From Marsupella aquatica (Eukaryota > Plantae > Marchantiophyta): 64,000 bases of DNA. Below, piece after piece: positions 2,306 through 42,834 of the stretch. The DNA lies in assembly GCA_973895155.1 (NCBI GenBank), contig OZ316892.1:8796148-8860147 (forward strand), written 5' to 3'. The translations under genes and the position numbers were made by a program. The notes beneath the pieces were generated by a model. The model saw only the letters and a list, made by a program, of their open reading frames with translations, made no database searches and had not been told where the DNA came from. Numbering within the stretch: the stretch's first letter is position 1; each line of letters begins with the position of its first letter.

Positions 2306-5300
2306 CGTGACTGATACGTGAGGCTCCTCGGTTTCTGCGTGAAGGGACGTAGCTAAGTTAATACAAGCAATGTAGCGCAAGGCCACCAATAAGATCTCGA
2401 AAGAATTGGAACTAGCATCTCTAAGTCAGCACCTCGTGAGAGCAGGAAAAGAATTCCGGGACCCTCAAAGCCAGCTCGCGATATGCGAGTGAGTCAAGTC
2501 ACAAGCGAGACAAAAAGATTGTTGACTAATTTTAATCCAGAGCAGCGGAACTGGCTAACTAAATTACTCCTCAACGACACGATTAAACAAACGTACAGCA
2601 ATGATGAAATTATTACGAAACTAGACGAGCCCAAGAACAAACAAATGACAGATTTGAGATCGCAAAGCAGCGAAGACCAGCACCTAATTCCGCTCCCAAC
2701 TATCGTCCACCAGTACCACTGCCGATTCTTATTAACATTTCGTAGCAGAGTGGTACAGATACACACGATTCAAAGTATCGACGAATGCTATGCAGTCGGA
2801 TGAATGCGAAAAGCGCACGCAGCACGCGGTAGGCCTCTACGAAGCGATTCAAACGGAAACAAAGAAAATACTGCGATAATCGCTGCATTGCACATCGAGG
2901 ACCACAACTCGATACGAACACAACCGTGGCAGCCTACCTAATCTGCTCCAGTTCTATAGGGAGACGGCATATCTAGTTCATTGTATATGTATGAATAAAT
3001 AATCTAAAAAAATGTAGGTTCGCAGAGACGTGTAAACCAGCCCTTCTGTGGGGACCATACCTGATACGACGGGGACTGATGCTCCCGGAGACGACTAGGT
3101 GCTCATTTTATACTCCGCAGACCACATCGGTCCACTATGGGAAGTCTTCTTCAACCCTCCTTTGTTCAGAAACGGTCAACCTTTCGCAAAGGCTACCGCA
3201 TCTCTTCCAGCTGAGACGATTTTTGACATGCTCTCACAAACCACACTCTTTACAGAACACTTCACAGAATCAAAGGGAAGTCGAAGTCCGTGAATTCGAA
3301 CGCCAGAGCTCACCTCAGTAAGAAACTGTTCACTCGAGATATCCGCACTGACCGAACGAACGGACAAAGCTCACTAACTGCATACAGCCCCTCGCTGAAA
3401 CCCACAGCCGCTGAGTTTCTCACACAAGCCTACCATCTTACTGGTGGTTCAAAGAAGCACACCAACGCCTCTCCTCCAATCTCCGCAGAAACGTAAGGCA
3501 ATTAAACAAAGCAAAAAGACAAAAAGTCTTCATGTCTCAGTCATACATAGAAAAATTAAAACAAGCACTGAAGAATTAACAACAAAGGGCAGTCGTTGTT
3601 TCACAGTTTGACGACGAAACGCAAGACGGCCATGAGACCATCGGTCTCCCAACCAAAGTCAGCAGCCAGCAACCCATTATTAAACAATCCCCGTCGAGTC
3701 CTTCGCCATAATTACTCGCGAGCTCTGGACTCCGAAATTCCTCTGAGCTCGACGTATCACTGCGCTTTGAGCCGAGAAAACGTAAGGAGCTCACTTTCCG
3801 ACATCGCCATTTATATAGCAGCAGCAGTTGAGAGTGTAGCGAGATACGGTACTGGCCTACTGGGTTTTGACAGGTGTAGGAGTCTCGTAAAGTGAGGGGG
3901 CGACTGGCGGAGAAAGGAGGGAGCCATGGGACCCACCTCACTCGCTACCGGGGCACGCAGCACATCGATGGCCAGTATCCATCTACGGAGGTGAGACGTT
4001 CTACAATGACCGTTGATTTACTGAAAGGCCTGACGGCTCCTGATAAGTCGAGTCAGACGGATGCGCGATCGGTCTGCCGTGCTTGACGGACGCGGCTTCA
4101 TAATAATGGGAATAGAGTAGATATGTGGAATATATGTGAAATAATATAATACGGGGCTATAAATGTATATGTACTTCACGCTACATTATTCTGTTTTTCT
4201 TGTCTTTTCTTTAGAGGACGTATACAATTTGCTTTTACGTAAAACCTGAGATTGAAAATGACGTACTATTAGAGGTAGGTTGGACAATCCGTATGATACC
4301 GACATTCAAAAGTGCTTTTTTTTGGTAAAGGGAGAATTGCCTTTGAACAAGTTGCACAACTAGTTTTTACTTTTTTAATAACTCTTATAACTATCACGAA
4401 TATTGTGGCCCAGAACACGTTTGAGCTGGGTTAGTCAGAGGACCGATCACAGGAGCAGAATCTTGAGTGTCACAGTCAGGGCAGGGATTATTTTGCTTTT
4501 GTTTATAATGGGCTTTGATTATTCCATCTACTCTTGAACCCTGATTACCCGTTCCTAGAATGTAAAGGGAGAGACTAGTAAAACATTTGGATGCTATTTC
4601 TTTTTCATTTTTGGCCCAAAAATGATTCCAAATATTTTTTCTGCACATATTATTCTACAAAATACAGTTTACAATACTAAGAAAGTGCATTTGCAACAGT
4701 TCAGCTACCAAACCTCTTTGGTCACATGCTCTTTGGTCACGGGCCTGATAAAGTTTGTCCCAATTAATAATTTTTGGGTTGCACTTGCTTTCAGTTTTGC
4801 CGCCTTAGAGTCATGTGACTTCACTGTAGACATGTTTGCAGCAAAATTTAAACTGCATTCCCTGAGAAAGGTATTCCAGATAGCAAGTAACACTAGAGCC
4901 AAGGAGTAGCTCCTGTTAATGCATTTTAAAATAATTTGTATACACATCCACATGTATATCTGGTGTGCTTTGATCTGGTTGTGTCCATCCTGTGTGATTT
5001 GATCCGCTATGTTGACAACTTTAGATGTTATTTGAGCATTGTTTTCTATATAATTCTATTAATCAATACAAATGATATCACAAAAGCCTAATCATATATT
5101 AGACTTGACAAAACCAAATGAAAAGTTTGCCTTCGTTTGTTAAATGTTTTTGTTTAGTTCAGAATCATCCAAACTCTATGCCTGACCACCTATGTTTGGT
5201 GTCAAATAGAATCTTGTTTTCTTGAGTTGTTACAAACTGCTTGGAAAGTCTTTCCAATGAACCTAATATAGTCACATTTCCTTGAGAATTGAGAGACCTT

Positions 5301-6364
5301 CAAATTTCAAATATGTCTGCTTGTATTTATTGTAAAAAGGCTTGGATGAGTTTTTGGCAAACGTGGAGGCCTTCCGCTAAACTATTGAATATTTCCAATT
5401 TAATCCAAACTACCCTAGAACTTACCAACGGTAGTGATTTTGTACCCACCTGCAATAATATGTCTAACATGTTTACTCAACATTCCTACGCCCTATAACA
5501 AGAGTATTTTAAAAATAAAATTTCAAACCTAGATTCTCTGCATGATCATAGTCAGTGTGTTTATTTTTGCTAGATTCCATCTCCACAAAAATCCTTTGCC
5601 ACTTTTGGCAAAAATTTGTTACTATTTTGATGGCTCATTAGCCAGTGTTTCACCTAACCCCAGGCCCCATTAGCCAAAATCTAACGGTCAGCCTTAAATC
5701 TAGGGAGATCTGACGGTGAGGAAAATAATTGAATCGGGAATCTTCTGAGCATCTTCTCCCTCACACACTTTACATTCGCCACTCTGGCTAAAAAGTGAAA
5801 TCCTTAAAAAAAATACGCTGGTCATGGTTGGTTCTTGCCTTGCTATTCAATGTAATTGCTTGAACCTGAGTGGCAACGCTATATTGCAGAGCTCATTGCC
5901 TCGTTTGCCATTTGTCGGACTGGAGATGGAGTGTGAGGGCTGGACCACCCTTACCCAAGATTGCCTACTAGTACAAAGGAACAAAATGGAAATTTGGGGA
6001 CCATATTTACGGACCCCCATGAGAGGTCTCTTGCAAATTCCCTGCCACGAGGTTGCACCACATCACCACAACCAGCCACAAACAGGAATTCTACTTTTAA
6101 CAATAACAAACATGCACAATCCTGTTTGTGGCAAAAGCAACATAATTTTTGGGGCGCCATGCCATAAATATTGAACGTAAAAAAACCAAAATACAAAGGG
6201 AAATATGTCATTTAGTAAAATAAAGTTAACATTTTTATGTTTGTCAAAGATATATCAGTGTTTTATATCAAAATGCTTGTATTTTTTAATTGTTTGCAAG
6301 CTTGAAAAAACCAACCAATAGAAATGTACATAGTTAAAACCCCTTTGGCTTCACATTGTAAAAC

Positions 6365-6860
6365 TAAATAATCAATCTCCTTAGTACTTGATAAAATTGT
6401 CAATGTTTGATTCATTGGAAAGATCAAGATTTAGAAACTAGTGACCTCTTTAATATTGTCTTGATAAATTCTCTCAATGTCACACTCATTGGAAAGCTAA
6501 AGTAAAATTAAAAACTCATCATCTCCTTAGTACTTGACAAAATCTATCAAATAATGTTAGGTTCATTGGAAAGCTAGAGAAATTCAGATACTCATGATCT
6601 CTCTAAGTCTTGACGAATAATCTCAATGTCACACATTAGAAAGAGAGAGAGATTGAAAACCTCATGATCTCTTTAGTATCGTGACAAAATCTGACGTAAA
6701 ATTTGTTAATGTCGGACTCAATGTTGGAAAGCTAAAAGAATTCATGGACTCATGGTCAATATTTCTTATACTCACACTCATTGGAAAGGCAAAGAAATTC
6801 AAAAACTCATTTGGAACTTGACAAAATTTGTCAATCTGAGGCTCATTGGAAACCCTTTCT
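6365..6860. repeat. Degenerate tandem array, ~70-80 bp unit
   Basis: Recurring motifs ATCTC(C/T)TTAGTACTTGA(C/T)AAAAT and CTCATTGGAAAG(C/G)TA, about 6-7 copies. Confidence 0.65.
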
Positions 6861-9091
6861 CGATTAAGAGATATCACAATCTCATCACCGTCACAAACTT
6901 AGCTGTTAAAAATTGATTTCTTTGATTACGTCGCCATCCCTTGTCCACAATGCTTGCTTCCCAGCTTGAATTGTTCGCATTCCTCTAGTCTTCAACTGAA
7001 GCTCACTCTGAACACAGGTTGACACTAAATGCAACCTCTATGTCAAAGAAACAATCGTTGGTCTCTCTCTCACACCATAGCTTTCTTAAATAAAACAACT
7101 ACAAATCGTTCATGTGAAGTGATGACTCGTTTGTTTTGTGTGTTCTTCCCATCGAATCGACAAGCGCTCTTTTGCCAATAGCTAAGTGTTATCCTCCAGT
7201 TTGTCTTGTGGCAGTAATGCTCAATGTAACTCACAAATGATCAATCATGAATGATAAAAACACGATTTCTCCAATGTGTAAGCAAAATCCGTCAGAAAAC
7301 TTAATTCCTCCATATTCAACCTTTCGTTGATAAATCTCCTCTATCTTTTGAGCATTTTCTTTTGTACGAGCACACACCAAGACCATCGGGAGACTCAAAA
7401 CCGTAGATTACCGCCTTGTTAAAAATTGATTTCACTTCATCAAACACACATTCCTTGGATGAACATGGGGGTCCACAGATTAATTGTCAGATTCCTTATT
7501 GATTTGAGACCCTGGTTGCCACAGTCATCAATCACTTCTCTGTAAGTCTCTGAAAATCTGACGATATGGATTACTGTATGCATGATCAGGTTAGTGCATG
7601 CCCTGGGCAATAACTTAATATTTTCATTTTTCAAATGATAGCGAAACTAGATAAAGAATACATCTCATTTGAAGCAATATAAGTATACAATGATTGATAT
7701 ATTTCATAATGCTTTAGAATATGCTTAACATGTGCATTGTAAAAAATCTCCAAAGTTTCATAACCATACATACAAGTTTTGTCTTGGTTATTGAAATTTC
7801 AATAACTACTGCATATATCTTTTGTGCTAGAGACAACTCATTACACCCTAACATTCCTCCCAACTTCATGAGTGGCCCACTAGAAAAACAATACTCTTGC
7901 TTCAAGTGGAGCGGGGTTTCAAGACAGACCCAGGTCTTTTCCTCGCTGTATGCTTGGGTCATTTACATATTGTAATGGGTGCAGTGACATTGATGAGTAC
8001 ATTATTTATGAAGCTGAAGTGGAGTTGTAAAGATTCATTTTCTCATTCATAAATATTTAAAAGCTAAAGGGGAATAAATTTTTGATGCTACTATACAACC
8101 CACATTTCATATTTTGTCTTGCTCTAACTTTTTGCTGTGTATTTTTATTGCAATGTGGCTTAACAAGGTGCATCATTAATTGCTCTGGGATGAGCTAACC
8201 TTGCTATAAGGGGAGTTCTTACAGGTTTTTCTAGCCAGCTGTTTTTTAATTCGATGACATCATGCTCACAAAGGGTATGACATCATGGAAGGGTATGACA
8301 TCATGGAATATTATCATACAAATCAGACTCTACTACATATGCACTTTACATCTTGCTTGGGATTTCTAAACAAACTAGCCCCAACTAGAGTACAATAAAA
8401 GTGTCAACAAAGTATATTCTCTATTCACATTTAATGAAATGATGAAAGTTGCAAGGGGCTTGGGAAAGCTTTCTAGCTATGGACACACCCTAGAGACTCT
8501 TTTTACACCAGTTCAACTACACTCCTCCACTCATTTCTCCACGGAATCCAGTTTTCTCAATTGCATTAGCTTGCTCTTGTTGAGGCGCATCAAATAGATA
8601 TCAAACACGCCACAAACGGAATCGTATCGACTTACTTATAGTCACATTAGGTTTCGATGTTTTTCTGTATTTTTTCTGCAACTTTCACCTTCCTTTCGAC
8701 TGTCATATCTTGGTTCATCTTTCACGGATTCCGCATTTCTCAAGTGTTTTGGATTGCTCTTCTCTATGAGCTTCAAATTGATCCCACGAGCAGTCCAATT
8801 GGACTCATATTGCCCTGATTGGACCTTGATTTGATTTCTCATTTTTTCTTCAATTTCACACGTACTCTCTCTCAATTAGGTTTCCTCCCCAATTTGAGGT
8901 GACGGTTTCCCTTGAACCACACCTGCCATTATAAAAGCCTCATTCCATGTCTCACTACTCACCATAAAAGGTGTAACACTCACACCTTTTGTGGAGTACT
9001 TGCCAAAAAAAAAGTTTTGCAGTCAGCACCTTTTGTGGAGCTCAAAACCCATTTCTGAACTTGTGGTCTTTACAATGAGAGCTACGGGTAA

Positions 9092-9449
9092 TGTCATGCC
9101 GAGGGACAGTGTCTCTTATGCACATCGACATGTCCCTTGCCTGCCCGCTAGGTATGTAGTTAGGGCTAGTGTACTACCTGAGTTAGCGACATGTTCTTGT
9201 AGCAAGTCTGGGCCGTTGTTGAAGCAAATGTGCTTGTTAGTGTGACGCCAGGACTTTGCTTGCTTAGGGCATGTCTTTCTTTGTGGGTTTTCAGTTCTTC
9301 TTGAATCACTGTTGACAGAGCTCAGACAGTGCTCGTCGGTTCCGTACACGGGATTCACACAGTGATTCGTTAGATACTCCCGGCTGATCTTGGCATCCCG
9401 CCGGTTTTTGATTCGATTTCAGTACGATTGTTTCTCTTACGCCTTTTAT
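9092..9449 (+). repeat. Direct repeat A1 (358 bp)
   Basis: Matches 18250-18607 with about 3 transitions by eye. Confidence 0.95.
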
Positions 9450-9461
9450 TCAAGAAGAACT
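9448..9461 (+). promoter_or_regulatory. Putative self-priming primer-binding site (Tf1/sushi-like)
   Basis: ATTCAAGAAGAACT is the exact reverse complement of AGTTCTTCTTGAAT at 9293-9306 inside repeat A and lies at the 3' edge of A1. Confidence 0.7.
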
Positions 9462-9929
9462 CTGTCGCCGGGTTAGCGGTGAAGGGAAGAAGATCGGAGA
9501 CGCTGTGCTTCTCAATTGCTCGAGACAGTTGACGCTTTTCCGCTGATGCCGGTGCAATTTCTATGGAAAAACATTGAGAGATGGGGTGGAAGTTATGGCT
9601 TTTGTGTATACACTTAAGTATATACACTTAAGTCAAACAGGCCCCCCCCCTCACTCTTTTCCTTCGCGCTTTGCTTTCAGGGTTTTCCATTTCCTGGCCA
9701 CAGTTGCCATCCTGCATCGGCTGCCGTGCGACAACCTCCGCATTGCCTCGGCCACCGTGCGACTGCTTCTCGACTACATAGGGCCTCGCGCCCGTTTTCT
9801 TTTCGCCCTTTGCTGCCATTTTTTGCCTTCGTCGCCTCGCCACTCCTTTCGCATTGGTGTGCAGGCTGTGCATAGGGCATCGTGCCTTTGCCTCGCCCAT
9901 TTTCCTTCCTTCTTTTCCTTACCGTTATC

Positions 9930-10385
9930 AGCAATTAAAGCACTTAGATGAGGGGGAAGTGAGCGCAAGGAAAGGAGAGGGCACGAGGCCCACCAGGAAG
10001 CATTAAAGCAGGAGAGGAGGGGGAGCGAGTGTGCAAGGAGAGGGCACGAGGCCCTATGCTGCAATTAAAGGAGGGGAGGGGAGCGAGTGTGCCAGGATAG
10101 GGCACAAGCCCCTATGTTGCATTAAAAGGAGGGGGAAGGGGAGTTCACATACGACTCCATTCTTTGGGAGTCCCCCTACAGGGCACGGAGCCCACTGTCA
10201 GCATTAAAGAAGGGGGGGAGGGAGAGTACATCGACTCCCTTCTGTGGGGAATACTGTCACCAGGGCACGAGGCCCAATTTCATTAAGGAGGGGAGGGGGA
10301 GCTCGTAGCTTCCCTTTGGAAGCTCTTAAGGTGGGACACGAAGCCCTATGGAGGGCTCATGCCATTAAGAGGGCCCGGTTTGGCC
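9930..10385 (+). repeat. G/purine-rich degenerate tandem repeat (~60-80 bp unit, ~7 copies) in the retroelement 5' UTR
   Basis: Units begin GCA(A)TTAAAG at ~9931, 10000, 10061, 10119, 10201, 10281 and 10361, followed by GAGGGGGA...GGGCACGAGGCCC. Confidence 0.75.
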
Positions 10386-10936
10386 CGGTTTCTTTCGCCT
10401 CGCCCCCTTTCCGCCTTGTAATCCGCCTCTCTCTTTTCTTTTCGGCAGTCGTCTTTCCTTCCGCCTCGCAATGACTTGCATAGGGCCTCCGCAGGCTGCC
10501 TGTGCATAGGGCGCCGTGCCCTGAGTGTGTTTACACACTCGGCCGATTCCCTTGTGCCGATTTTGCTGCCAACGCGCACCCGGTCTCTTTTCCATCGTGC
10601 TTGCTAGTTCCCGGGTCCACATTGGGCCCGATGTATACACTTAACCGGGCCCCATGTTTATACATTTGAAAGGGCCCATGTATACACTTAAGGGGGCCCC
10701 AGGTTTACGTTTTTAAGGGCCCATTTTTCCGGGTCAATCTGGCAAGCACAACACCGGTACAATTGGAGTTTTTAAGGGTCTTTTCTTTGCCGACGGTTTT
10801 CTATGTGTTTACACATTCGACACATTTCTGCCTCACATCGTTTGTTTCCTTTGTGGGTTTTATTTCCTAGCCTTGGGGCTGCCATTTCTTTTTCTTGTCA
10901 GTTTCTTTCCCATTGGCACCCAGGTGAGCATGCAGC

Positions 10937-12512
10937 ATGTCAGCCGACAAGCCAGGAGGTAGCAGCACATCGCCACCGACACCCAGGTACCATTTACGGA
11001 GTGATCCACGACCATTGGTGCCAATTTCATTGGAGTCTCGGCAATTTCGACGACGTCCACAGACAGTAGCAACACCCACACCACACAATCCTTCTGCTCC
11101 ATTTGGCGGTCGCTTCACCACTACTCCCAAGCCTGCTATCACTTCATTGCCATTTACCCCTTCTGCATCCGTGGTTGTTCTTGCTTCACCGACATACAGC
11201 ATGGACGCCAGCCACTCATCTGGCCGCATTGAACGCTTCAGCGGGCGGCCAGGCACTGTTTCTTTGCGTGAGTTCAAATCCACTTTCTACACTGTCGTTT
11301 GCCCATGCTGCTGCTCCTGCCACTTCCCCTCCTACTCCAGTTCCCACCACTGCACCAGTTACTCCCACTCTCTTGGCACAGGCTACATCAGGCATTTCTC
11401 CCACCGTTGATTCTCCTGCCTTTGCTGATCCAGTGGCTGAGTTTTTCCAGGTTCTTGAATTGGAATTCCCCATCAAGAGTGCTGACAAAATCATGCAGTT
11501 GGCCACCTTTGTGAGGCAACGCGATGAAACCTTGAAGATGATGTATTGCTGGCTTCTCAAGCTGAAGAAGGACACCCAGAGCATCACTGACCTGGAAGCT
11601 GCTCATCGCTATCTTCGCGCATTGGAGGGCACACCAGCTCTCCGTTCGCAAGTATTGCAACAAGTATTCTCAGAGTTTGGAGACAGCTACACCCTACTCA
11701 ATGTCTATGACACTGCTGAGAAACTTGAGTTGGCCCATGCACATTATGAGGCCAGTATTGCACATCCACCGCGATCCAGGTACCAGGCTGCTGCCCCTAC
11801 ACTGGCCACCCCTTCCCGTGTGCCACAGTATGGTTCCAAGACCAAGCCAGCCCATGCTGCTTTCATGCTGCCATCTTGCAACTACTATGGTAATCCCAAT
11901 CACAAGGCTAATGACTGTGATATTGTTGCAGAGGACCTGTCTTGTGATTTTTGCGGAAAAGTGGGTCACTTGGAGGCAGTTTGTTTTGCCAAATTCCTAG
12001 AGAGGAAGCAGCTACGACAGCAGGCCCCTCCTCCTGCTCCTGCTTCCACTCCCCCACCAGCTAGGAGGGCTCCTACAGTAACAACTGCTCCTCCTTCCAG
12101 TGGCAAAGCATCCAGTGCCAACAAACCGCCCAAGCAGCAACAGAAGCAACCAGCTCAGAAGGAGGCTCACAACGCACAGGCAACTCAACTCCAGTCTCTG
12201 ACTCATGAGGTTGAGTCCCTACGTGCCCAACTTGCCAACATCAAAGGCAAGTCAACTGCCTCTGCTGGTCCTTCTCAACCAGCTGGTCACGTGCAACCCA
12301 TCCTTGGCCCAGGCACCACTGACAGTTCAGCACCTCTACCCCGCTCTTTCTATGGCTTGCCATTTGATGCTCATATGGGTGAGTGTGTGTTGTACTCTGC
12401 TCCACAGCCTGGCCTTACAGCAGAATTTTCAGATTCATTCTGCCCTTCCTATTTTGCTTACCAGCAGGCCAGTGCTGCCTCCCGTATTTCTCCCACGCGC
12501 CGCATTGTATAG
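10937..12512 (+). pseudogene. Gag of the Gypsy element (frameshift/deletion near 11300)
   Basis: IERFSGRPGTVSLREFK (ORF 10937). Two zinc knuckles in ORF 11103..12512: CNYYGNPNHKANDC (degenerate) and CDFCGKVGHLEAVC. Confidence 0.75.
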
Positions 12513-13149
12513 GCTGATGGTCTTGCTGCTGGTCCTCTAACTAGAGCCAGGGGAGCTCGGGCTGTCATGCCCCAATCCTTTCAGCCACTCACACTTGCTG
12601 AAGAGCGCACCTTGTTGGCGAGGGGGGAGGGAGCTGCAGCTACATCCATTCCACCACCAGGTGCTGCTGACATTTCACAGGGAGTTGTTTCTCCTGAGCT
12701 ACTTGAGCATTTCACCTCCGGTATGGCACAAAGGATTCTTACAACTCCACTTTTTAGTTGCCATGATTTACAGTTGGATGCTAGAGCTGTCATCAGAGCG
12801 CTAGAGGGCTCACTGCATTCTTCATCAGCCCCTGTGACACCGGTTTTTGAGGTCCAATCTCATGTACATACTGGATCTTCTTCTTCTCCATTACATGCTT
12901 CCACTGGTTTGGCTATCCCAGTACCAATTTCCAGTGGTAGAGATGACAGTATTGCTGCAGATTGTGTGACCAGAGCTACACTGGATTCTGGTCATGCTGC
13001 TCCATCTTTCCTGACTATGCTGTTGAATGGAAAGACCGTGGACACTAACTCCCTTCACAAGGTACCTCATCATTTGCCAAAAGTGGTGCCTAGCGACAGG
13101 ACTTCAGTTTCCACCACCATTGCCATTGTTGACAACAGGAATTCAGCAA

Positions 13150-13480
13150 TCAAGTTGGAGGGTCACACTCCTCAGGTGGTCATGCTAGACACAAGCGCTC
13201 AACCAGTGATATTGGGCATTCAGTTTGCCAAGAAGATGGGACTGTTGACTGATCATTTACAGCAATCCAGGTGGCACATTCGGATTGCTAGTGGCACTGT
13301 GGAGGATGTGCTGGGTGAGAGTTCTACTTTACTCACTCTCACTTTTAATGGAGGTACAGATCAGGAACTGCATTTCCCAGTCAGATGTTTGGTTACCAAT
13401 GCCACTACGTATGATGTGCTCATTGGCCAGGAGGCTTTGTTCCCACCAGGTTTTACCATTGACAACGAGCATGCATACTA
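13150..13480 (+). pseudogene. Retroviral-type aspartic protease domain
   Basis: VMLDTSAQP (DTG/DSG motif, altered to DTS), flap IRIASG and YDVLIGQE in ORF 12567..13769. Confidence 0.75.
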
Positions 13481-13829
13481 CAGAGTTGATTGGCATACGG
13501 ATGGCTCACACTTGGGATACATTCCACTTGATATGCATGGTGCCCATACCCCTATGGCTCACCACTGTGTGTTGAAAGTAGTGCACATAGCTACCTATGT
13601 CAACCACCCATTGCAGGATTGGATTGAGGAGGATGATGATGAGGTGGCTACTGCACATGCTGCAGCACTTTCCAGCAACGTGGATCATCAACCAGAGGTG
13701 GTGCAACGGCTCCAAGCAGCCCATGGACCTTTGGTGGCTGCATTGCACAAATTTGAGGACCTTGGGTAGCACAATGGACAACCAATAGCCCCAATCTTGA
13801 GCGCACCAGTTACATGGACTCCTCCTTCA

Positions 13830-14780
13830 GATGGCCTTACATTGCTTGAGCTTTTTGGTGGCATTTCTACAGGCCTGGAAGCTCTCCTAAAGTCTGGCAT
13901 GGTGGTGAAGCAGTACATCTATGTGGATATTGATCCAGGTGCAAGGCAAGTGGCTGAATCCCGTCTGCTGGAAGTTTCAGAGCGATTTCCCCAGCAGTTT
14001 CCACATAGTGCATGGACGTCTGCATTTTCTTTCTTTCCTCTAGATATCCAGCTTGTCCAGCACCGGCACTTAACCCTTCTTAGCTCCCTTGATTTGATCA
14101 TAGCTGGTTGGGAATGCCAAGGGTTTTCAGCTGCTGGTCACGGTGCTGGACTGCATGATTCTCGTTCTGGCCTTTTCACAGCATTGGTTTAGATTCTCAC
14201 CTGGGCTCAATCCCTTTATCCTGCTGTTGGTTATATCATTGAGAATACTCCATCTCAGTTTGACCAGCGTCCACAGGTCAAAGAGGATTTCAGTGTGGTC
14301 CAGCACTACTTGGGACCACCCCTTCTCATTGATGCAGTGCACTGTGGTTCTTATGCACATCGTCTTCGTAACTTTTGGACTAACCTTGCACCACCTTCCT
14401 TGCTGGAGATGGCTCTTCACCACACATCCAGGGACACTAACCTCACAGTGGACCAGATTTTGGATCCTGACAATTCTTGCCAACCAGTTACACGGCAAGA
14501 GCCAGCACCTTGGTATCCAGCCAATACCATTGGACAACCCCGTGCTGCTTGGCCTACATTTGTGTCCTTTCCAGGTGCACATGCTTTTCAGGGTGATGGT
14601 CCTGGTCTGGTTTATCGACATTCTACCGGTACATGGGATGAACCTAGTCCTGAGGAGAGAGAACGGGCTATGGGCTTCCAACCCGGTACTACAGGTCACA
14701 CCAAAATCACTAGGCTGGCCAGGAATGCTTTACTTGGCAGGGTAATGGATCTCAATGCTCTCACTTGGCTTCTGGTCACT
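13830..14780 (+). pseudogene. C5 cytosine DNA methyltransferase domain within the Pol polyprotein (one in-frame TAG at 14190)
   Basis: Motifs in canonical order: I LELFGGISTG; II YVDID; III LDI; IV IIAGWECQGFSAAG (Cys 14115); V DSRSGLF; VI YIIENTP (14241, read through the stop); VIII AHRLRNFWTN; IX ERERAMGF; X LLGRVMD. Confidence 0.88.
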
Positions 14781-15149
14781 TGCATCCTTTTTCAGATGTA
14801 CATTCCTCCAGCATTAGGAGCTCCAGCCCTACCACTCCACAGTGCTACTGCATGGCATCCAGACCAGGTGCACTTACCTCTGTCCAACACTCACCACTTC
14901 AGTCCAAGTGTTGGGGGGGAGGAGGTCCCTTGTAATGCGGCTGACATTATTTCTGAGTTTCATGGTGTGGACCACTTCAGATCAGTAGGTACAACAGGCC
15001 TTGGAGAGGCCTCATCACCTTATCAGCAGCATGCTAGCAGCTTGGACAGTGGAGAGGCTGGCACTTCTGGCTCTTCAAGCACGAGTACATCAGGTCCTAT
15101 TCCTAGTGTTGCCAACTACACATTTATCATGGGCAACCACCTGAGTAAA

Positions 15150-16480
15150 AGACAGAAGGACCAGCTGCTGAATTTGCTCCTCAAGCATGAGAATGTGTTT
15201 GCTTTCTCTATGAAGGACTTGGGTAAGTGCAAGACTATGCAGTTCTCCATTGAGTTGGCTGATGAAACACCTATCTTCAGGCGGAGACACCGTTTGAGTA
15301 AGCATGAGTGGCAGCTGGTGGATGAGAGGTGCCAAGAGCTCTATGAAGCTGGTCTTATTCAGCCATCTACATCAGATTTTGCAGCAGCTACAGTGATGCC
15401 AGCAAAGAAGGATTCCAGTGGATTGTGGACAGAGAAGCGCATGTGTGGGGACTACAGGCCATTGAACCTGGTCACACCCCAGGACAGGTACCCCATGCCG
15501 CGGCCAGAGGAGCTATTTGACAGTATTGGAGACTCAGACATCTTCACTCTTGTGGATCTAAGGCAAGGCTTCAACCAGATTTTGTTGCTTGCAAAGGATC
15601 GCAAGAAAACAGCTTTCCATGGTAGTAACCAACTATGGGAGTGGTTGGTGATGCCATTTGGCTTGAAGAATGCGCCCATATTCTTTCAAAGAGTCATGGA
15701 CCAGGTTCTTCAAGGTGCTGAGTTTCTGAAATGCTACATTGATGATGTGTTGGTCCACAGCAAAGGATTTGACCAGCATCTACTTGACCTTGAGGAGCTA
15801 TTCATGAGGCTTAAGAAGGTGAACCTAAAGATACACCCCAAGAAGTGTGAATTTGCTGTTAGATCAGTAGTATATCTTGGGCATCGCATTCTTCCAAATG
15901 GAACCATGGCTCACTGGGCCAAGGTGGTATCCATCTTCGAAATGCCCACTCCTACCAATGTTCACACTTTGAGGAGTTTTATTGGGTTGTGCAATTACTA
16001 CCGGATCTACATCAAAGATTTCAGTACCATTGCACACCCATTGTATGCTTTGTTGAAAAAGAATGTGACTTGGACATGGAGTACAGATGCTGAGGCAGCA
16101 TTTGCACACAGATTGGAGTGCCCTTGGGATTGGTGCCATTTTGGGCCAGCATGATGAGGAAGGTAAAGAGTACGTCATTGCCTATGCATCCAGGAGCAAC
16201 AATCAGGCAGAGAGTCATTATTCTTCTTATGAGGGTGAATGCCTTGCTGTTGTGTGGGCTGTCATACATTACAGGCCCTACCTCTATGGGACCAGGTTTG
16301 TTCTCTACACCGACCACCAGCCCTTGAAGTGGTTGATGACCAACGACAAGCTTACTGGCAAGCTTGCTCGTTGGGCGCTCATACTCAGGAGTATGATTTT
16401 GAGGTAATTCATAGGCCTGGTGTGACACATCAAAATGCTGACACTATGTCCCGCAGCCCTTTGATTGCCTCTGATGATTC
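15150..16480 (+). pseudogene. Gypsy reverse transcriptase + RNase H (deletion near 16105, frameshift near 16387)
   Basis: KRMCGDYRPLN, DLRQGFNQI, VMPFGLKNAP, YIDD (15735-15746), YLGH; RNase H HTDWS..GIGAIL, YEGECLAVVWA, YTDHQPL, NADTMSR. Confidence 0.95.
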
Positions 16481-16550
16481 TTCAGATGCATGGCAGGATT
16501 TTGACTAGGTTTCCATCCTGCCTACATTTCATGCATCTACCTATCTTGCT

Positions 16551-17830
16551 TTGCTGCCATGCTACGTTGTTGACCAACCTGTGGTAGACATATGGGAGGA
16601 CAACAACACTCTGAGATTTTTGCAGCATGGGGAGTACCCCATACATGTTATTGCTGCCCAAAGAGACCGAATTCAGCAAAGGTCCAAGCGTTACTTGTGG
16701 AAGGGAGATCATCTCGTGCGCTGCTTGCCAGACAGGGAAGTGGTGGTTCCACCCATTCATGAGAGGGTTGGCCTGATCCGTAAGGTACATTCTGAGCTTG
16801 GTCATTTTGGCGTTAAGAGGACTTACAGCCTCTTGGTCCCTCATTATCATTGGAGAGGCATGCATGGCCAGGTTCGAGATGTTATTGCCCGGTGTGAACA
16901 GTGTGATAGGGTGAGGACTTCTTTCACATCTCGGCAACCCACACTTCATCCACTCCCTATTCAGGGCATGTTTTATCGCTGGTCATGTGATTTGGCTGGA
17001 GAATTACCCCTCACGTCTCGGGGTAATCTCTACATCATGATCATGATAGAGCATTTCTCCAAGTGGATAGAACTTGTGGCATTGCCAGATAAGACCTCCC
17101 GTAGCACCAGCCAAGCATTCCTGCAACAAGTTCTCAGCCGCTTTGGAGCTTGTGCAGAATGTCTCACTGACCAGGGCTCAGAGTTTAGAGGAGAGTTCCA
17201 GGAGCTGCTTGATCAGGCCCTCATTGATCATCGCCGGACATCATGAGATCACCCACAGGCAGATGGCTTGGCAGAGCGCATGGTTCAGACATGCAAGAAG
17301 GGCCTCCGGAAGATCTGCCTCACCAAAAACAAGGAGGATTGGGACCTGGCCTTACCCTACATTGCCATGGGGTATAGGATGTCCAGACATGCATCACTGT
17401 CTAACTTTTCTCCCTACTTGTTGTTTGGTCGTCACCCAATTCCACCTTCTGCTATTGCTGCTCACATGTTTCAGGTGGTGGACTTGGATTCAGTTGTGAC
17501 TTGGTTTGATGTGATCTTTGAGAGGGCTGCCCTATTCAGGAGGGTTATGCCCATGGCCATGGAGAATTTGGCCATTGCACAGCACAGGGACACACTGCGT
17601 TATGCACACACACGAGGGGGCACTTTTCAGCCCAAGGTCAGGAAGTTTGATGTGGGAGATTTTGTGTACTTGCAGCGGCAAGCTAACGACACCCTGGACA
17701 CCTCTACCAGTCGTACTATTCTCAGGGTTAAAGCTATTTGACCGTTTGGAGTGCTAGAGTTACAAGGGGCAGATGGGCGCACAATTGCTGACAATGCCAA
17801 GAATTGCGCCCCTTGTCATCTGCCTAACCT
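16551..17830 (+). pseudogene. DDE integrase (in-frame stops at 17244 and 17739)
   Basis: HHCC zinc motif HSELGHFG...CEQC; catalytic residues in WSCDLAG, LTDQGSEF and GLAERMV. Confidence 0.92.
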
Positions 17831-17879
17831 AGATCCCACCATTGTGACTTCTACTTGGATTCCACCTGTGGACTACCCT

Positions 17880-18032
17880 TGCAAGGTGTGTTTGCGAATT
17901 GATGATGCTGACCAGATGCTGCTGTGTGACAATTGCAATGGAGGGTACCATCTTTTTTGCCTTTGGCCTGAACTTACCCAGGTGCCAGAAGGGTTATGGT
18001 TTTGCCCTTCTTGTGCTCCACGTGCTACCTGA
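17880..18032 (+). other. PHD finger at the integrase C-terminus
   Basis: C4HC3 pattern CKVC...LLCDNCNGGYHLFCL...WFCPSC, same reading frame as the integrase, followed by the terminal stop. Confidence 0.9.
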
Positions 18033-18071
18033 ATTTTCTTCAGCCCTCCTTTTGGCTGTGGTCTGGGGGGG

Positions 18072-18247
18072 ATACAGAGGTTTACACCTCCACTACGTAC
18101 ATACCACTTCATTTGCTTTTTCTTGGCACTTATGAATGTGATTGGACTTTTTCTATGCATGTTGGTTGCTAGCAGCTTGCACATATGCCTTGTCGGTGAC
18201 TTGTATGTTTTCGATACACTATGGCTACGACACTATATGTCATGACA
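18072..18247 (+). repeat. Direct repeat B1 (176 bp), preceded by a G7 PPT-like tract (18065-18071)
   Basis: Matches 18608-18783 with about 4 transitions; ends in CA. Confidence 0.95.
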
Positions 18248-18249
18248 GC

Positions 18250-18607
18250 TGTCATGCCGAGGGACAGTGCCTCTTATGCACATCGACATGTCCCTCGCCT
18301 GCCCGCTAGGTATGTAGTTAGGGCTAGTGTACTACCTGAGTTAGCGACATGTTCTTGTAGCAAGTCTGGGCCGTTGTTGAAGCAAATGTGCTTGTTAGTG
18401 TGACGCCAGGACTTTGCTTGCTTAGGGCATGTCTTTCTTTGTGGGTTTTCAGTTCTTCTTGAATCACTGTTGACAGAGCTCAGACAGTGCTCGTCGGTTC
18501 CGTACACGGGATTCACACAGTGATTCGTTAGATGCTCCCGGCTGATCTTGGCATCCCGCCGGTTTTTGATTCGATTTCAGTACGATTGTTTCTCTTACGC
18601 CTTTTAT
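18250..18607 (+). repeat. Direct repeat A2 (358 bp)
   Basis: Copy of 9092-9449; begins TG. Confidence 0.95.
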
Positions 18608-18783
18608 ATACAGAGGTTTACACCTCCACTACGTACATACCACTTCATTTGCTTTTTCTTGGCACTTGTGAATGTGATTGGACTTTTTCTATGCATGTTG
18701 GTTGCTAGCAGCTTGCACATATGCCTTGCCGGTGACTTGTATGTTTTCGATACACTATGGCTACGATACTATATGTCACGACA
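18608..18783 (+). repeat. Direct repeat B2 (176 bp)
   Basis: Copy of 18072-18247; ends CA, followed by TSD GTAA. Confidence 0.95.
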
Positions 18784-20116
18784 GTAACCCGTAGCCCTTT
18801 ATAGGGGCAGGTGTGGTTTGATCAGCTTTGGAGCATTCTTGTATCCGATTGGTGGTTGTCTTTCTTCTTCACCTCTGGCAGGGTGGCTTTTTGCCAAGTT
18901 TCGTGGACCAGATTGCATTCCACCATCTTTGGGAGCTGAAGCAGCATGCTCAAATCAGCAGGCGGTTTTTACTCGCACCAAATCCTCCACGGCCACATCA
19001 ACAAGTGCTTCAGCTTTGTCCCCTACTGTGCCTGCACGGGCTCAACAGTTTCCTAGGCTCGCGGTGGCGCCGTTTCTCGGATTGATGCGGTGGGCTCTCT
19101 CCATAGCCTTCCCTTTCTTTTCACATGTCTTGGTTGGGCCTTTTGTTACTTCTTGATGCGCTTTTGCTTTTAGTGGGTTGCGGCCTGTCATGTCTACGTT
19201 GAGAGTGTTGGCGCGGGGCAAACGCCAAGCCTCACCACACACTTCTCCCCCCTCCTCCCCCCCGCCTTGTGGTCGCCTTCGTGTTTGCTCTTCTTCACTG
19301 GATCTCTCTCATCTTCGTGATGACCCCATGCCCGATGCTCTACTAGTCCCCCCAGTCTACTGCCCATCCCATCGTCGCCCGGGCTCCTCTCCCCACCCCC
19401 CAGCATCATCCTCCGGCCTCATCATCCACGTCTGTTCCACCCCCACCTCCTGTCCAGTCTTTCCCAGCTCCCTCCCCAGACGAGCGTCCCCTACATACTT
19501 GCCCTGATTGTGGATGGGTTGGCATCTCCCTCCCTCATCATCGCGGGCGGGGCCGGTGCCAACGTCGCCAACACGCACAATCCGAGCCTCAGCCCCCTCT
19601 TGACCCTGTTAGCTTTGCCCTCCCTTCTTGAAGGGCTTCTGAGCAGGCATGGAGTTGGGTTCGCACTCTAGACCCCCTTCCAGCCTACCATCCAGGGTAC
19701 ATTAGATCTCGCCTCTATAACCACATCCCACTAGCGTTGCGCCCTTTAGTTTGGTCATCCTTGTTGTAACTCTTGCAACTTATCTTGGTGCACTATAGAG
19801 GTCTCTTATTGGTCTTTACTCATGCTTTTCCGCAGTGGACTCTTACCCTCCCTTGTCATGGTGGTTGCGTGGGTCACCATGAGACTGCCTTTCGTATCCA
19901 TCGTTTTCTGTAGGGAGATTGGGAACAGCTCCAGGAAGAGTACTTTCTTAGAGCCCGTTCCTTTACCGCCCGAGCTTTGTCTGACCCAACTTGCCACTCT
20001 TGTTAGATATTGCTCTAGTCTTGTGACTCATGAGCTAACTATAGTTAGGCTAACTCAGGTTAGGACTTAGCTAATGTTAGCGGTAGTGCTGTTGTGTATA
20101 TAGCCAAGGCTGATGC

Positions 20117-20448
20117 TGTTGAACTAAGACGTCATTCGCAACGACCATACAACCATGACTCATTCCATGCACACGTAGTCGACACAATCTCTACGTGGTT
20201 CACCTCTTCTCCAAGGCTACGTCCACACGAACACTCAAGCTTTACTTCAAGAGTAGACGAACACACATGCTCTCTCTCTTCCTCCTATTGTTCTGTTACA
20301 ATGAGTAAGCACCACCCACCAGCGGCTTACACTAGCCCTGGTATATACAAGGTCACACACGACTAATCTAACCTCAGCTAAGATCCTAACTGTGGTTAGC
20401 CTAAGTGCCGTAACCTATGAGTCACAAGACTAAGAGCAATCCTTAACA
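20117..20448 (-). mobile_element. Solo LTR of a related Copia family inserted in reverse orientation into the 5' LTR
   Basis: TG...CA ends and TSD GATGC at 20112-20116 and 20449-20453. Absent from the 3' LTR (681 vs 344 bp = 332+5). Its reverse complement aligns with the host LTR. Confidence 0.9.
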
Positions 20449-22188
20449 GATGCCAGACCCTGGTGGAACTTAGGCTCATTGTTACAGAGCTAGTTGAGAG
20501 ATAGGGAGAGCTTGTGCTGTGGATGCTTGGTATGGCCGGTCGGTCTAGAGTGCAGTAAAGCTCTTGTGTGTTCCCGTGGACGTAGCCTCATGTGGAGGTG
20601 AACCACGTATCTTTCTGTGTCGACTATTGCGCGTTGGATGGTTCATGGGCTTGCCGTTGCGAATGTCGTCTATGCTCAACATGTGGTATCAGAGCATGCC
20701 TGGGAGGTGACGAGCTTTTTTCGTGACAGGTTTTTCCAACGTTCATTGTCGATGGTAATTCAGAGTTTCGTCGCATGAAACTTGATTGTGTGTGGCTGAG
20801 CGGATAGGTTAGTGAGAGGGCATTCTAACTGTGGTTAGAGCTCGCTGATGGTATTCGTGGTGCGGAGGAATTGAAGTTTGCGTCGTTCAGGGTTTATTCA
20901 TGTTTGACGGTATTTTGGGGGAGAAACCAGAGATCATTTCTTCAACGGTGTGAGCTGTGCGGTGTGCGGGGCGTCGCATGTGATAGTTCAAGTTGAAGGT
21001 TGGAGCGTGCTGGTCATTTTGGTATCTAGTTTGCTGACGTTTGCGAAACGAGTGTGTCGTGACGAGTGAAGGAGGCGTTCTGGTTTTTTGACAAGCTATG
21101 GTGCTTGTTTTTCCCTGAACCGGATTACTCGTCGTAACGCTTGACTCGGAGGAAGAAACGCGAAGTGCTGAGGCTCAACGGAGAGATCGTGGCGAGACGG
21201 TCGTTTTGAGTCCGGGATTGGCACTTGGCGCGGAGTGAAGGCGACGCAACAGAAGTTCTTTCTCTGGTGGAGCTTCAAACATGCCGGTGCAATTCGGAAA
21301 CATTTTCATGTCGGCGGTCATCACTTTTCTCATTGGAAACCAAAGCGGAGGTGGCTTAGGTTTGTAACACGGCCTTTGTGTCATTTTGGGCACATTTTTA
21401 AAGTTAGTTTAGGGCATTTTTTGCCCCAATACGGCCCCAATACCCAACAAACCAGGTTCGCCATACGCCCCGGCGCGCACACCGGCCTCCCACACCCCTT
21501 TAAGCGCGAAAACGTGCTTTTTTGGGCCCAAATACGGCCAAAAACGCCCATATACGGCCCAAAAACGCGAGAATATGCGCGTTTTGACCCCTTTAAACCC
21601 GTTTTTTCACGTTTTTTGCTGTTTATACGCGATTCTGGCCGCAAATACGTGCGCCTTTGCCAGGGGCTTTAAGACCCCTTTAGAGTGTTTTTTTTCAATT
21701 TTTTTTCTGTCCTCCTCCTCATTGGTTGTGCCTCATCCCGGGCCCTATGACCCTCCGTTTTAACCGCTCCAACAGGGGGAACGGCCCCCTGTGAGCCCTG
21801 GTGGACTGTGCGGGAATATTCCCAAAAAAACAGAGAGCTGTTTTTCGGCCGTCACACAAAGATTCCGTCCGCCGCACAGTAACTTTTTTGGTTCTTTTTT
21901 GGTGAGGACGTTGCCACTGGAGTTAGCAACGCGGCGCACCGATCACATCGCGATTCTGACAACAGGTTGTACTTGGTATTTCGGTTATTCTCCGAGGTGG
22001 TCAAAACGGGGGAGTTTCCCAAGGTTTTACCCACCCCGACCGAAATTTGAATAACTTTTCCGTCGAATTTCGATTTTGATTTCGGATTTCAGTATTGGAC
22101 TCCTAGCTTCGTGGGCTTCGCGGCGGTGTTGAGTTTTGAGTTTTATGAGAAGTTTCAAAAAAAGACGTTTTTTTCGTGATTGTTTCAT

Positions 22189-25100
22189 ATGAGTGACTCG
22201 GAGGATACTGGAAGAATTGGCGTTGGTGGAGCTTCAGGATCGCGACGGTCAGACAGAGAGTCTGAGGAGGAGCTGCTACCATTTGAGGAGGAACTTATAA
22301 CACCGGTACGATCACCGGTGCGACATGCAGTGGAGGAAGCTGTGTTACTACCAGAGCTGTCGGTAGTAGGGAAGAAGAGGGAGATGGCTAGATTTGGAGG
22401 AGTGAAGTTTGAGGTGGAGAAGTACGATGGTCGTACTGATTACTTGCTCTGGGAGAAGCAAGTGAAGGGTGTTCTACGGGCCATGGGCTTAGCTCATCTG
22501 CTTTCATCGCGAGAGCAGTATGATGGAGAGGAGGAGATTTTAGTGAAGCAATGGAGACAGGAGCAGGTGATTGTTGTCAATGCAATGATGCTATATCTCA
22601 AGCCGCACATCATCAAGCAGCTGGATGATTATGCGGATTGCGCATCACTGTTCAAGGCTCTAAGAGAGAAGTATTACCGGGAAGATGCGTCAGACCGGCT
22701 ATACAAGAAGTCTCTCTTGATGAGCCTCAGGCTCAAGGAAGGGAGCAAGATGCAGGATCACCTGGATGAGTTTGACAGTCTAGCGGTTGATCTGTCAAAC
22801 TTGGGAAAAGGAGTTGAAGATGAGGATAAGGCCTTGCTTCTGCTAAGCTCCTTACCGCCGTCATATCAGGGCTTGAAACAGGTGCTCTTGTACAGAGATC
22901 TGAAGTCCATTTCGTATAATGAGGTGGTAAGCTCTTTACTATCTGATGATGCTCAGAAGAAGCTGGGTCAATCACAGACAACATCTTTTTCTAGCACTGC
23001 GCTCAATATGAACAGGGGAAGAGCAACGCAGCGCACGAATGGGCAGAACAGGTTTAGATCTACATCACGGAGGACATCTAAATCCAGAGGAAAATCACAA
23101 GAGAGGAAGCCTCTTGCATGTTGGAATTGTGGCAAGCCAGGCCACATGAAAAGGGATTGTCGAGTAAAGGTCCCTACTGCCTCTGCTAACGTAGCATCGA
23201 GCTCGCATGAGGTAGATTTACTCGATGATGATGACATATTGTGATGTCAAGGTTATGCTCTCAACGTAGTGTCAAATCCAGGTAGTGATGACTGGATTCT
23301 AGATAGTGCATGTACTTTTCATATTTGCTCTAGAAGAGATTGTTTCAGTTCTTACACGGTTTCCAACGGGTCAGTGTTGATGGGAAATGGAATCCCATGT
23401 CAAGTTGTTGGACTTGGATCTGTAAGATTTCAGATGTTTGATGGTGCTGTGAGAACATTGAGGAATGTGAGACATATTTCCAGCATGATGAAAAATCTCA
23501 TTTCACTTGGAGTTTTAGAGGCAAATGGCCATCAGTGGAGTTCTGCTAATGGTGTCCTTCAGGTTTCAACTGGTACTAAAGTTGTATTGAAGGGAAAGAG
23601 ACATTGCAATCTATACGTTATGGAGGGCAGTGTAGTCTATGATGAAGCCAATGTAACCTTATCTCATGAGGAGACGGCCCGGCTATGGCACTTTCGTTTG
23701 GGCCACATGAGTGAAAAAGGTTTGGTTATTCTTCAGAAGAAAGGATTATTTTCTAATTTGCAATCTTGTAAGTTGGAATTTTGTGAGCACTGTGTGCACA
23801 GGAAACGCTTCGGAGTTGGAACTCACACCAGCAAGGAGGTACTTGAGTATGTACATAGTGATGTGTGGGGTCCCGCCCCTACTCCCTCACATTCTGGACG
23901 GTTATACTATGTCACGTTCATTGACGATTACTCAAGGTATGTGTGGATATACTTTCTACACAATAAGTCTGATGTTTTTGCCACTTTTAAGGAGTGGAAA
24001 GCCCAAGTTGAAAATCAGACTGGTAATAAGGTGAGATATCTTCGATAGGATAACGGCGGTGAATACAGTTCCGGTGAATTTGGAACGTATTGTAAGGAGC
24101 AGGGGATTACCCGCCATCTCACAACAAGCTATACTCCTCAGCAGAATGGTGTTTCTGAGAGACTCAACAGAACACTATTGGAGCGCTCGAGGAGTACGTT
24201 AAGTCAATCATGCTTACCACATGAGTTTTGGGCTGAAGCTGTCAACATTGCAGCTTATTTGGTAAATTTTACTCCATCCAGTTCTATTGGATTCAAGACG
24301 CCATTTGAAATGAGGTACGGGCGTCCAGCAGATTACTCACATCTGAGGATTTTTGGATGTGATGCTTATGTGCTTACACCTTCCCAGCTTCGATCCAAGC
24401 TAGAGTCCAAGTCGAAGAAGTGCATTTTCCTTGGTTATCAGAAAGGTGTGAAGGGTTATAGGTTATGGGATCCAGTAACCTGTAAGCTAATTGTCAGTAG
24501 AGATGTGTCCTTTAATGAATCCAGATCATCAAAGGAGGGGGAGAGTTCTCAGGACTCCCATACTGACAAGGGGAAATCTCCCATCCCGGACCGGGTTGAG
24601 GGGGAGATTAGTCATGATGCAGTTCATGACAGGAGAGATGGAGAAGCTCTGGGCTTGGAGCTGGTTCCTGTGATGGAACAAGAGGAGCAAATTGTTGCTG
24701 GGGTACCTCAAATTCAACCAGCAGCAGCAACAGATCAGCCTGAGTCATCTACTAGAAGAACTTCCAGTCGTTCTACTAAAGCTCCTACCAGGTATGGTCA
24801 ATGGGCAGACTCATCTAAGCTAGATGATATTGACATTGCACCTGATGAAGATGATATGGCTTTGATCTTGGAAGAAGGAGAGCCTTCTTCGTATAGTGAG
24901 GCTTGTGCTTCAGAGCAGAAGCATGAGTGGAATGCAACAATGCAGAGGGAGTTGCAATCTTTGAGTGACAACAAGACATGGGAGCTGGTGGAGCTTCCAA
25001 GAGGTCAACAAGTGGTGGACAGCAAGTGGATTTACAAGTTGAAGGACAGTCCTTCAGAGGGTGGAGATAAGATCTACAAGGCAAGGCTTGTTGCCAAGGG

Positions 25101-42600: not shown

Positions 42601-42834
42601 CCCAAGATTTCCGTGGCTGATGAAGTTTCTATGCTCCAGCATGCAAGAGAGGACGGTGCTGTGTATGTCATGGGGAGGGTGGACATTAGGGTCAGTAAGA
42701 CCACCAAGTTTATTACGCGTATCATTGTGGGTAAGTTCTACAGATTTCTTAATGCTAACTGCAGATCAGAGGTGTCAACTATGGATATTCCCTACGACAA
42801 TTACCTAGAGATTGGCCTATTGTACGACATTTGA
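36617..42834 (+). CDS. KUP/HAK/KT potassium transporter (8 exons: ~36617-37198, 38226-38448, 39071-39325, 39619-39669, 40118-40378, 40590-40642, 41097-41467, 41942-42834)
   Basis: [80 protein letters not shown]; GT-AG boundaries. Exon 1 less certain. Confidence 0.93.

Follow-up and report, generated by a model that had tools for sequence, protein, structure and literature searches.

A DNMT3-like methyltransferase domain and split direct repeats in a Ty3/Gypsy-type retroelement of the liverwort Marsupella aquatica

The DNA analysed here is a single stretch of 64,000 nucleotides from the liverwort Marsupella aquatica (referred to below as the window), which contains a retroelement with an embedded DNA methyltransferase. 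On balance, we consider it somewhat more probable than not that the element represents an old green-plant family of the Ty3/Gypsy type in a copy that is now dead, that the family's DNMT3-like enzyme likely methylates new cDNA at CG, and that the ends, arranged as A-body-B-A-B, likely arise when a two-LTR circle is opened by the integrase at a palindrome within the LTR. We regard it as almost certain that the methyltransferase is genuine and that its family is one already known, though barely studied. The end anatomy is the new part.

The polyprotein and its methyltransferase

Four stop-to-stop open reading frames (11070–12512, 12513–13769, 13770–14192 and 14193–16154) lie in the same frame, with one TAG codon between each and the next (12510, 13767 and 14190). 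The read-through protein has 1,694 residues, along which Pfam places the protease first, then PF00145, then reverse transcriptase (RT). Other frames continue beyond the RT with RNase H, an HHCC-DDE integrase and a PHD finger. The order protease, RT, RNase H, integrase, with a DDE integrase present, is that of Ty3/Gypsy elements. The coding features are:

11201..12029, + strand: gag, broken by a frame change near 11300; 64–69% identical to relatives P0002, P0028 and P0029
13149..13439, + strand: aspartyl protease; PF13975 (residues 694–790) at E 3.3e-4, below the cut-off; 73–75% identical to relatives
13815..14807, + strand: DNMT3-like C5 cytosine methyltransferase domain, interrupted by the TAG at 14190, catalytic Cys codon at 14115 (Pfam, structure-sequence search, AlphaFold model, Foldseek, alignment of 161 relatives)
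15429..15890, + strand: reverse transcriptase core; PF00078, E 4.7e-28
16099..16389, + strand: RNase H, frame-shifted; PF17917, E 4.3e-36
16752..17741, + strand: DDE integrase; PF17921 and PF00665; HHCC finger, D (WSCDL), D (TDQG), E (GLAER); two TGA stops
17880..18014, + strand: C-terminal PHD finger; PF00628, E 3.6e-12

The first-pass annotation had described open reading frames in one frame split only by single TAG codons. The three TAGs are there, but the one at 14190 sits inside the methyltransferase, and the copy also has further stops beyond that domain (16506, 17244 and 17739) and frame changes near 11300, 16105 and 16385. The true start of gag, near 11201, lies in a frame differing from that of the open reading frame 11070–12512. 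With one TAG inside the methyltransferase, three later stops and the frame changes, the window copy is a pseudogene. The repeats at its ends differ at only 7 of 534 bases, all of them transitions, yet the copy is dead; the element is therefore probably young and was likely copied from an already broken template.

Relatives P0002, P0028 and P0029 read through all three TAG positions with aligned residues. Identity to P0028 is 76% in the methyltransferase, 75% in the protease and 83% at the start of the RT, compared with 45–62% in the spacers, and in P0028, P0033 and P0059 the methyltransferase lies in the same open reading frame as RT and RNase H. The earlier suggestion that the methyltransferase was part of the polyprotein is thus borne out by relatives that are open across the stops and by a domain better conserved than the spacers. 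The domain is present in 161 aligned relatives, and the comparisons indicate that it is an integral, conserved part of a land-plant retroelement polyprotein.

A search of the stop-repaired protein (stops read as X), which the first-pass annotation had proposed, gave a match to PF00145 (DNA_methylase) with 25.3 bits against a Pfam cut-off of 22. In a sequence search against solved structures, which returned 43 matches at E up to 1, the nearest to the domain (13815–14807) were DNMT3A chains (E 2.5e-6), with HhaI at only 0.05. An AlphaFold model based on a 33-row alignment has a mean pLDDT of 95.2, and its Foldseek matches agree on a DNMT3 fold: DNMT3A, B or C accounts for 32 of 32 among the matches listed, the best with E 7e-19 and TM 0.73. 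The label "DNMT3-like" rests on the solved-structure and Foldseek searches, host DNMT3 being absent from our trees. The motifs follow in the canonical order I, IV (GWECQ), VI (ENT), VIII (HRLR), IX and X, located between protease and RT as had been proposed; they are unpermuted, and the domain is intronless and within one frame. Identification as a CMT, DRM or MET1 enzyme was ruled out by the DNMT3 matches and the unpermuted motifs. Rfam gave no match within window positions 8000–21000.

The catalytic Cys and the motif VI Glu, reported as retained in the first-pass annotation and indeed present here, are found in 161 of 161 relatives aligned over more than 270 residues, a set picked by likeness to the query and hence biased; the two motif VIII Arg residues are kept in 160 and 159 of the 161. 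Motif IV had been noted as an atypical oddity, a view that does not hold among these relatives, where GWECQ occurs in 64 and GWPCQ in 48. Proline is replaced by glutamate in 89 of the 161 and is also missing in the window copy. By this alignment, GWECQ is the family's commonest motif IV and not a sign of decay.

Other parts of the window hold features of their own. A KUP/HAK potassium transporter gene occupies 36600–42834, and its exon at 41914–42831 is 63–64% identical to Marchantia proteins, 51% to Physcomitrium and Riccia, and 45% to Sphagnum, figures that by themselves make a liverwort host likely. At 20449–26993 there is a copia-type element with 233-bp repeats 97% alike and an TGGTATCAGAGC primer site; a pair of 117-bp repeats encloses it. 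A fragment at 26861–28117, non-LTR-like by eye, matches RT only weakly (PF00078 E 5.6e-5, under the cut-off). A 625-codon open frame on the minus strand (52008–53885), CG-poor (observed/expected 0.34) and with no Pfam match, is likely an accessory gene of another element. Arrays of 18–145-bp repeats are found at 47823–48932, 50151–50572 and 60977–61684.

Relatives in the green lineage

A representative protein search gave 267 clusters at E up to 1e-30. Both methyltransferase and RT matches occur in 76 proteins; the methyltransferase precedes the RT in 7, as in the window, and follows RNase H in the other 69. Named members with the first layout are Klebsormidium nitens and Closterium, and with the second Tetradesmus and Hariotina (the chlorophyte branch). 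The two layouts separate in the methyltransferase trees and in an RT tree made of family members only, with no reference RTs (5 versus 25 rows, support 99). The K. nitens protein GAQ93235.1, with protease followed by methyltransferase, appears to fall in the same clade as the window element. The window and K. nitens retroelement methyltransferases group together with 99% SH-aLRT against 10 prokaryote or phage rows, in a tree with no host DNMT3 or SymbioDIRS rows and a long K. nitens branch. Among the 120 closest domain-size matches listed, Calypogeia fissa is named twice and Sphagnum compactum and S. magellanicum once each, and the Calypogeia and Sphagnum matches share a clade with the window at 100/100 support (14 of 34 rows of the methyltransferase tree). 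The public gene models P0305 (S. magellanicum) and P0247 (C. fissa) are pieces of the element annotated as host proteins.

By these comparisons the element belongs with KnitGypsy-Dnmt3 of Klebsormidium and has relatives in Calypogeia, Sphagnum, Closterium and chlorophytes. A separate land-plant capture of the methyltransferase was rejected, as the window and Klebsormidium elements form one family. Bacterial contamination was likewise rejected: the element has the KUP gene and plant retroelements as neighbours, is flanked by a target duplication, and has relatives on chromosome-size contigs.

The first-pass annotation was correct that methyltransferase-carrying retrotransposons have been published for charophytes and dinoflagellates (PMC5890265). 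In that study KnitGypsy-Dnmt3 was taken to have been acquired within the lineage of K. nitens (de Mendoza et al. 2018, PMC5890265), and later papers, in their accessible text, merely cite it for "streptophytes" (PMC12344493; 10.64898/2026.05.21.726589). It resembles the window element in its intronless DNMT3-like domain within a Gypsy-type Pol and in its DIRS-like A1...B-A2-B repeats; unlike KnitGypsy-Dnmt3, the window element has a land-plant host, and its family extends to chlorophytes, in a branch where the methyltransferase comes after RNase H. The accessible part of that description does not name a PHD finger, a target duplication, a priming site or an integration route (PMC5890265). EpiLTRs and DAM-LTRs are, like the window element, of Ty3 type with captured DNA methyltransferases and a chromatin reader; they differ in their DNMT4-related or adenine enzymes and chromodomains, and the preprint sets them apart from "streptophytes (Gypsy-DNMT3)" (10.64898/2026.05.21.726589, accessible text). 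Our search of the accessible literature found no report of the family in land plants, although the supplement of PMC5890265 may list more hosts, and no account of its priming or integration route.

In four public sequencing runs, contigs cover 30 of 30 bins of the element, with 791 to 10,835 contigs per run and identities from more than 99% to less than 90%; this coverage and spread indicate a large family in several related organisms. A metagenome scan, with a pattern that also catches general Dcm genes, yielded family members at 2 of 79 loci (L001 and L002). L001 has an open RT-RH-DNMT-IN-PHD frame, and its methyltransferase is only 38% identical to that of the window. A viral collection contributed 80 loci of distant Dcm-type genes, gave nothing when searched with the integrase and had the family motif in 0 of 24 loci, and among prokaryote genomes 1 of 53 stretches matched, over 29 residues at 1e-4. 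The top ESM Atlas cluster is a Streptophyta DNA_methylase cluster, which we take as a lead only.

Chlorophyte-type members (L001 6900–7483; P0005 residues about 2650–2799) carry an extra C-terminal domain behind the PHD finger with a DP-x-x-G/S motif and no Pfam match at 0.01. In P0005 it also has a TRPP motif, and the two motifs together are, we presume, reminiscent of amino-methyltransferases.

Split repeats, priming signals and a possible route of integration

The element spans 9092–18783, starts with TG, ends with CA and is flanked on both sides by GTAA. Its plan is A1-body-B1-GC-A2-B2 (A-body-B-A-B), with no pair of complete terminal LTRs, and the earlier description as an ordinary LTR element is accordingly not supported. 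The features of the ends are:

9088..9091, unstranded: left 4-bp target-site duplication GTAA; empty-site contigs in public runs have one 4-bp copy
9092..9449, + strand: repeat A1, 358 bp, TG start, left element end; 3 differences from A2
9293..9306, + strand: predicted self-primer (5' end of RNA), exact complement of 9448–9461
9314..9320, + strand: 7-nt arm, possible second duplex of a Tf1-type pretzel, complementary to 9460–9466
9448..9466, + strand: predicted primer-binding site adjoining the end of A1; no TGG, so not of tRNA type
18065..18071, + strand: G7 tract adjoining B1, predicted polypurine tract (from position only, function inferred)
18072..18247, + strand: repeat B1, 176 bp, CA end; 4 differences from B2
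18241..18256, unstranded: internal palindrome at B1|A2, centre CA-GC-TG, predicted integrase cut site; 15 bases from 18244 identical in L001 9309–9323
18250..18607, + strand: repeat A2 (repeat comparison)
18608..18783, + strand: repeat B2, CA end, right element end; joins A2 with no base lost or added
18784..18787, unstranded: right target-site duplication GTAA (sequence)

The anatomy is read from one whole copy with both ends, which would be compatible with a one-off accident (recombination, a nested insertion or an assembly error) in an ordinary LTR element. We consider such an accident highly improbable. A clean target duplication surrounds exactly A-body-B-A-B, empty-site joints occur in all four public runs (with the exact joint in 7, 2 and 9 contigs of X1, X2 and X4), and a second insertion in these runs starts exactly at the TG of A; moreover, the same plan is published for Klebsormidium, and the junction is common to L001. 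The palindrome with a CAGCTG centre, pointed out in the first-pass annotation, is real, and its 16 bp read CATGACAGCTGTCATG. In L001, GACAGCTGTCATGCC lies 1.8 kb behind the open reading frame and is the same 15 bases as the window junction. The 15-mer occurs in L001 only, in 1 of 159 loci, and a 10-mer match was reached by 3 of 200 shuffles, the match having been spotted by eye before the counting. When L001, which is without its 5' end, was compared with itself, neither an A/B repeat pair nor a second B nor a target duplication was seen.

Ngaro and PAT are split-repeat retrotransposons with a tyrosine recombinase and A-body-B-A-B repeats. The window element shares the repeats with them but differs in its DDE integrase, protease, TG...CA ends and target duplication. 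No tyrosine recombinase was found among the Pfam matches or open reading frames, nor any recombinase family in the 9 + 8 element proteins scanned; rve and HHCC were found. The legend of Fig. 4c of PMC5890265 likewise gives KnitGypsy-Dnmt3 repeats of DIRS type and domains of Gypsy type, and SymbioDIRS-Dnmt3, another split-repeat retrotransposon of the tyrosine-recombinase kind, carries a Dnmt3 active on CG (PMC5890265).

The end of repeat A and the start of repeat B coincide with candidate priming signals. The 14-nt self-priming match was equalled in 0 of 10,000 shuffles and 0 of 8,951 window pieces, and the RNA predicted to start at 9293 folds with this 14-nt pair closing the fold. In all LTR elements the primer site and the purine tract set the borders of the copied LTR; as the match abuts the end of A and the G-tract adjoins the start of B, the LTR that is copied would likely be B+A. 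The Tf1 primer has a length of 11, and a primer of 11 bases beginning at 9294 would reach exactly to the A border. Priming by a tRNA was ruled out, there being no TGG behind A1. In the Tf1 plan, the RNA primes itself by pairing its 5' end with a complementary site that directly follows the 5' repeat (10.1101/2022.12.06.519325). Tf1/sushi elements thus resemble the window element in this complementarity, in having no tRNA site and in one flanking duplex (10.1101/2022.12.06.519325). Two of the three duplexes of the Tf1-type pretzel were found, the second (7 bp) being reached by 77 of 20,000 shuffles; the third was looked for and not found in the window element. As far as the accessible Tf1 account goes (10.1101/2022.12.06.519325), there are two further differences: Tf1-type LTRs are terminal and end with CA at the primer site, whereas repeat A ends with AT there and the CA/TG ends fall inside the predicted U3, and Tf1/sushi elements have a chromodomain in contrast to the PHD finger.

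These signals also bear on the possibility that the element is copied as Ngaro and DIRS elements are, with RNA running from A1 into B2 and template switching from one split repeat to another restoring the ends; both the fold-back match and the G-tract would then be vestigial, and the integrase would still cut a circle at the palindrome. Such copying would fit the repeat plan, which is that of split-repeat DIRS elements, and would explain the exact A|B joint without end joining, but it predicts neither a 14-nt fold-back at the exact end of A1 nor a G-tract at the exact start of B1, and the Pol is of Ty3 type with a DDE integrase and a target duplication. We regard it as rather unlikely.

The reading that we prefer, the opening of a two-LTR circle in place of the linear-copy ends that related elements use, would proceed as follows. 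A single polyprotein (gag-PR-DNMT-RT-RH-IN-PHD), as it exists in intact relatives, would be made. The RNA would start near 9293 in A1, fold onto 9448–9461 and prime itself in the manner of Tf1, and the minus strand would jump to A2. Plus-strand synthesis from the G-tract would give a linear cDNA, BA-body-BA, with AT...AT ends lacking att sites, and blunt joining of these ends would produce the exact A2|B2 joint. The integrase would then cut each strand of CA-GC-TG after CA, in staggered fashion, leaving 3'-CA ends with 2-base overhangs, the normal processed state. Insertion of such ends would give the TG...CA termini and 4-bp duplication that the product has. Opening at the upstream palindrome would yield A-body-B-A-B, the sole form that would keep a duplicated R for another round. 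Host blunt joining is usually imprecise, and to that extent the exact, blunt A2|B2 joint speaks against the circle model. The foamy-virus integrase cleaves a palindrome at two-LTR junctions (PMC1180852), which resembles our model in that a cut in a circle palindrome gives processed ends; in foamy virus the palindrome is formed by the two joined LTRs and the outcome is a linear LTR provirus, whereas the window palindrome is inside the repeat and the product would be permuted.

The target site (window 9081–9091 and 18784–18795) lies within a high-copy repeat, at the midpoint of a palindrome (GCTACGGG-TAA-CCCGTAGC), and in two runs another copy of the element lies 35 bases from the target site on the opposite strand; a target preference is possible. 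The 5' untranslated region (9488–10863), which has short G-rich repeats, is far more thinly covered by the four runs than other parts of the element and is perhaps subfamily-specific.

Role of the methyltransferase and significance of the family

The coding region is depleted of CG (observed/expected 0.26) and not of CWG (1.60); the CG ratio is 0.40 in the neighbouring copia element and 0.62 in the rest of the window. The first-pass annotation had suggested methylation of nascent cDNA or of the att palindrome with its CHG site (CAGCTG). Action on nascent cDNA appears plausible; CHG as the likely target is unsupported in view of the DNMT3-like domain and of the CG and CWG ratios. Most likely, the enzyme would act on new cDNA at CG, a role favoured by the DNMT3-like domain, by the CG methylation that DNMT3-type domains of Symbiodinium elements carry out in yeast (PMC5890265), and by the CG depletion of the coding region, which host methylation alone could also produce. 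Released beside the RT in the particle, the methyltransferase would write 5mC on the cDNA, likely at CG, and the cDNA might then resemble host DNA or enter chromatin already marked.

The enzyme might instead act mainly on the att palindrome, marking CG or CAG by the cut site; the mark would direct the integrase to one of two palindromes, or protect the palindromes inside integrated copies from being cut. An uncut palindrome is kept in every integrated copy, a CG stands just before CA in B2 and L001 where B1 has TG, and methylase and palindrome co-occur in both branches with DNA examined. These are two elements only, CWG is not depleted, and the Symbiodinium-element domains show no preference beyond CG (PMC5890265); we think this role unlikely. 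We give about the same low weight to a domain that binds DNA or SAM and methylates little or nothing, or that damps the element's own expression to the benefit of the host, as raised in the discussion of PMC5890265. In its favour, the Klebsormidium domain gave no methylation in yeast, a result that its authors call inconclusive (PMC5890265), and the motif IV proline is often replaced by glutamate, as noted above; against it, the Cys, Glu and both Arg residues are kept in 159–161 of the 161 relatives, and human DNMT3B failed in the same yeast assay (PMC5890265).

Returning to cDNA methylation and circle opening, we extend them tentatively, and with a little less than even confidence, to a green-lineage-wide Ty3-type superfamily in which the att sites have moved to mid-U3 and which would integrate only by DDE-integrase cleavage of a two-LTR circle, giving permuted proviruses. 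The att palindrome would be conserved from bryophytes to chlorophyte-type members, and the built-in DNMT3 would mark cDNA and perhaps att.

What had been published as a capture within the Klebsormidium lineage now looks like part of an old family, present in liverworts and peat mosses and with an extensive branch in chlorophytes. The family can be studied in land plants, and it will inflate DNMT3 counts in bryophyte annotations. In our view the end anatomy matters more than the capture of the methyltransferase. Elements of the A-body-B-A-B plan would escape finders of LTR pairs. LTR-element circles are generally regarded as dead ends, and the only case made for integration from circles, to our knowledge, is that of a side route in retroviruses. 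If the model is true, here is a family whose every insertion resembles an opened circle, which would make the question of circle integration testable, and circle opening would explain the puzzle, posed by a single figure legend (PMC5890265), of Gypsy domains combined with DIRS repeats.
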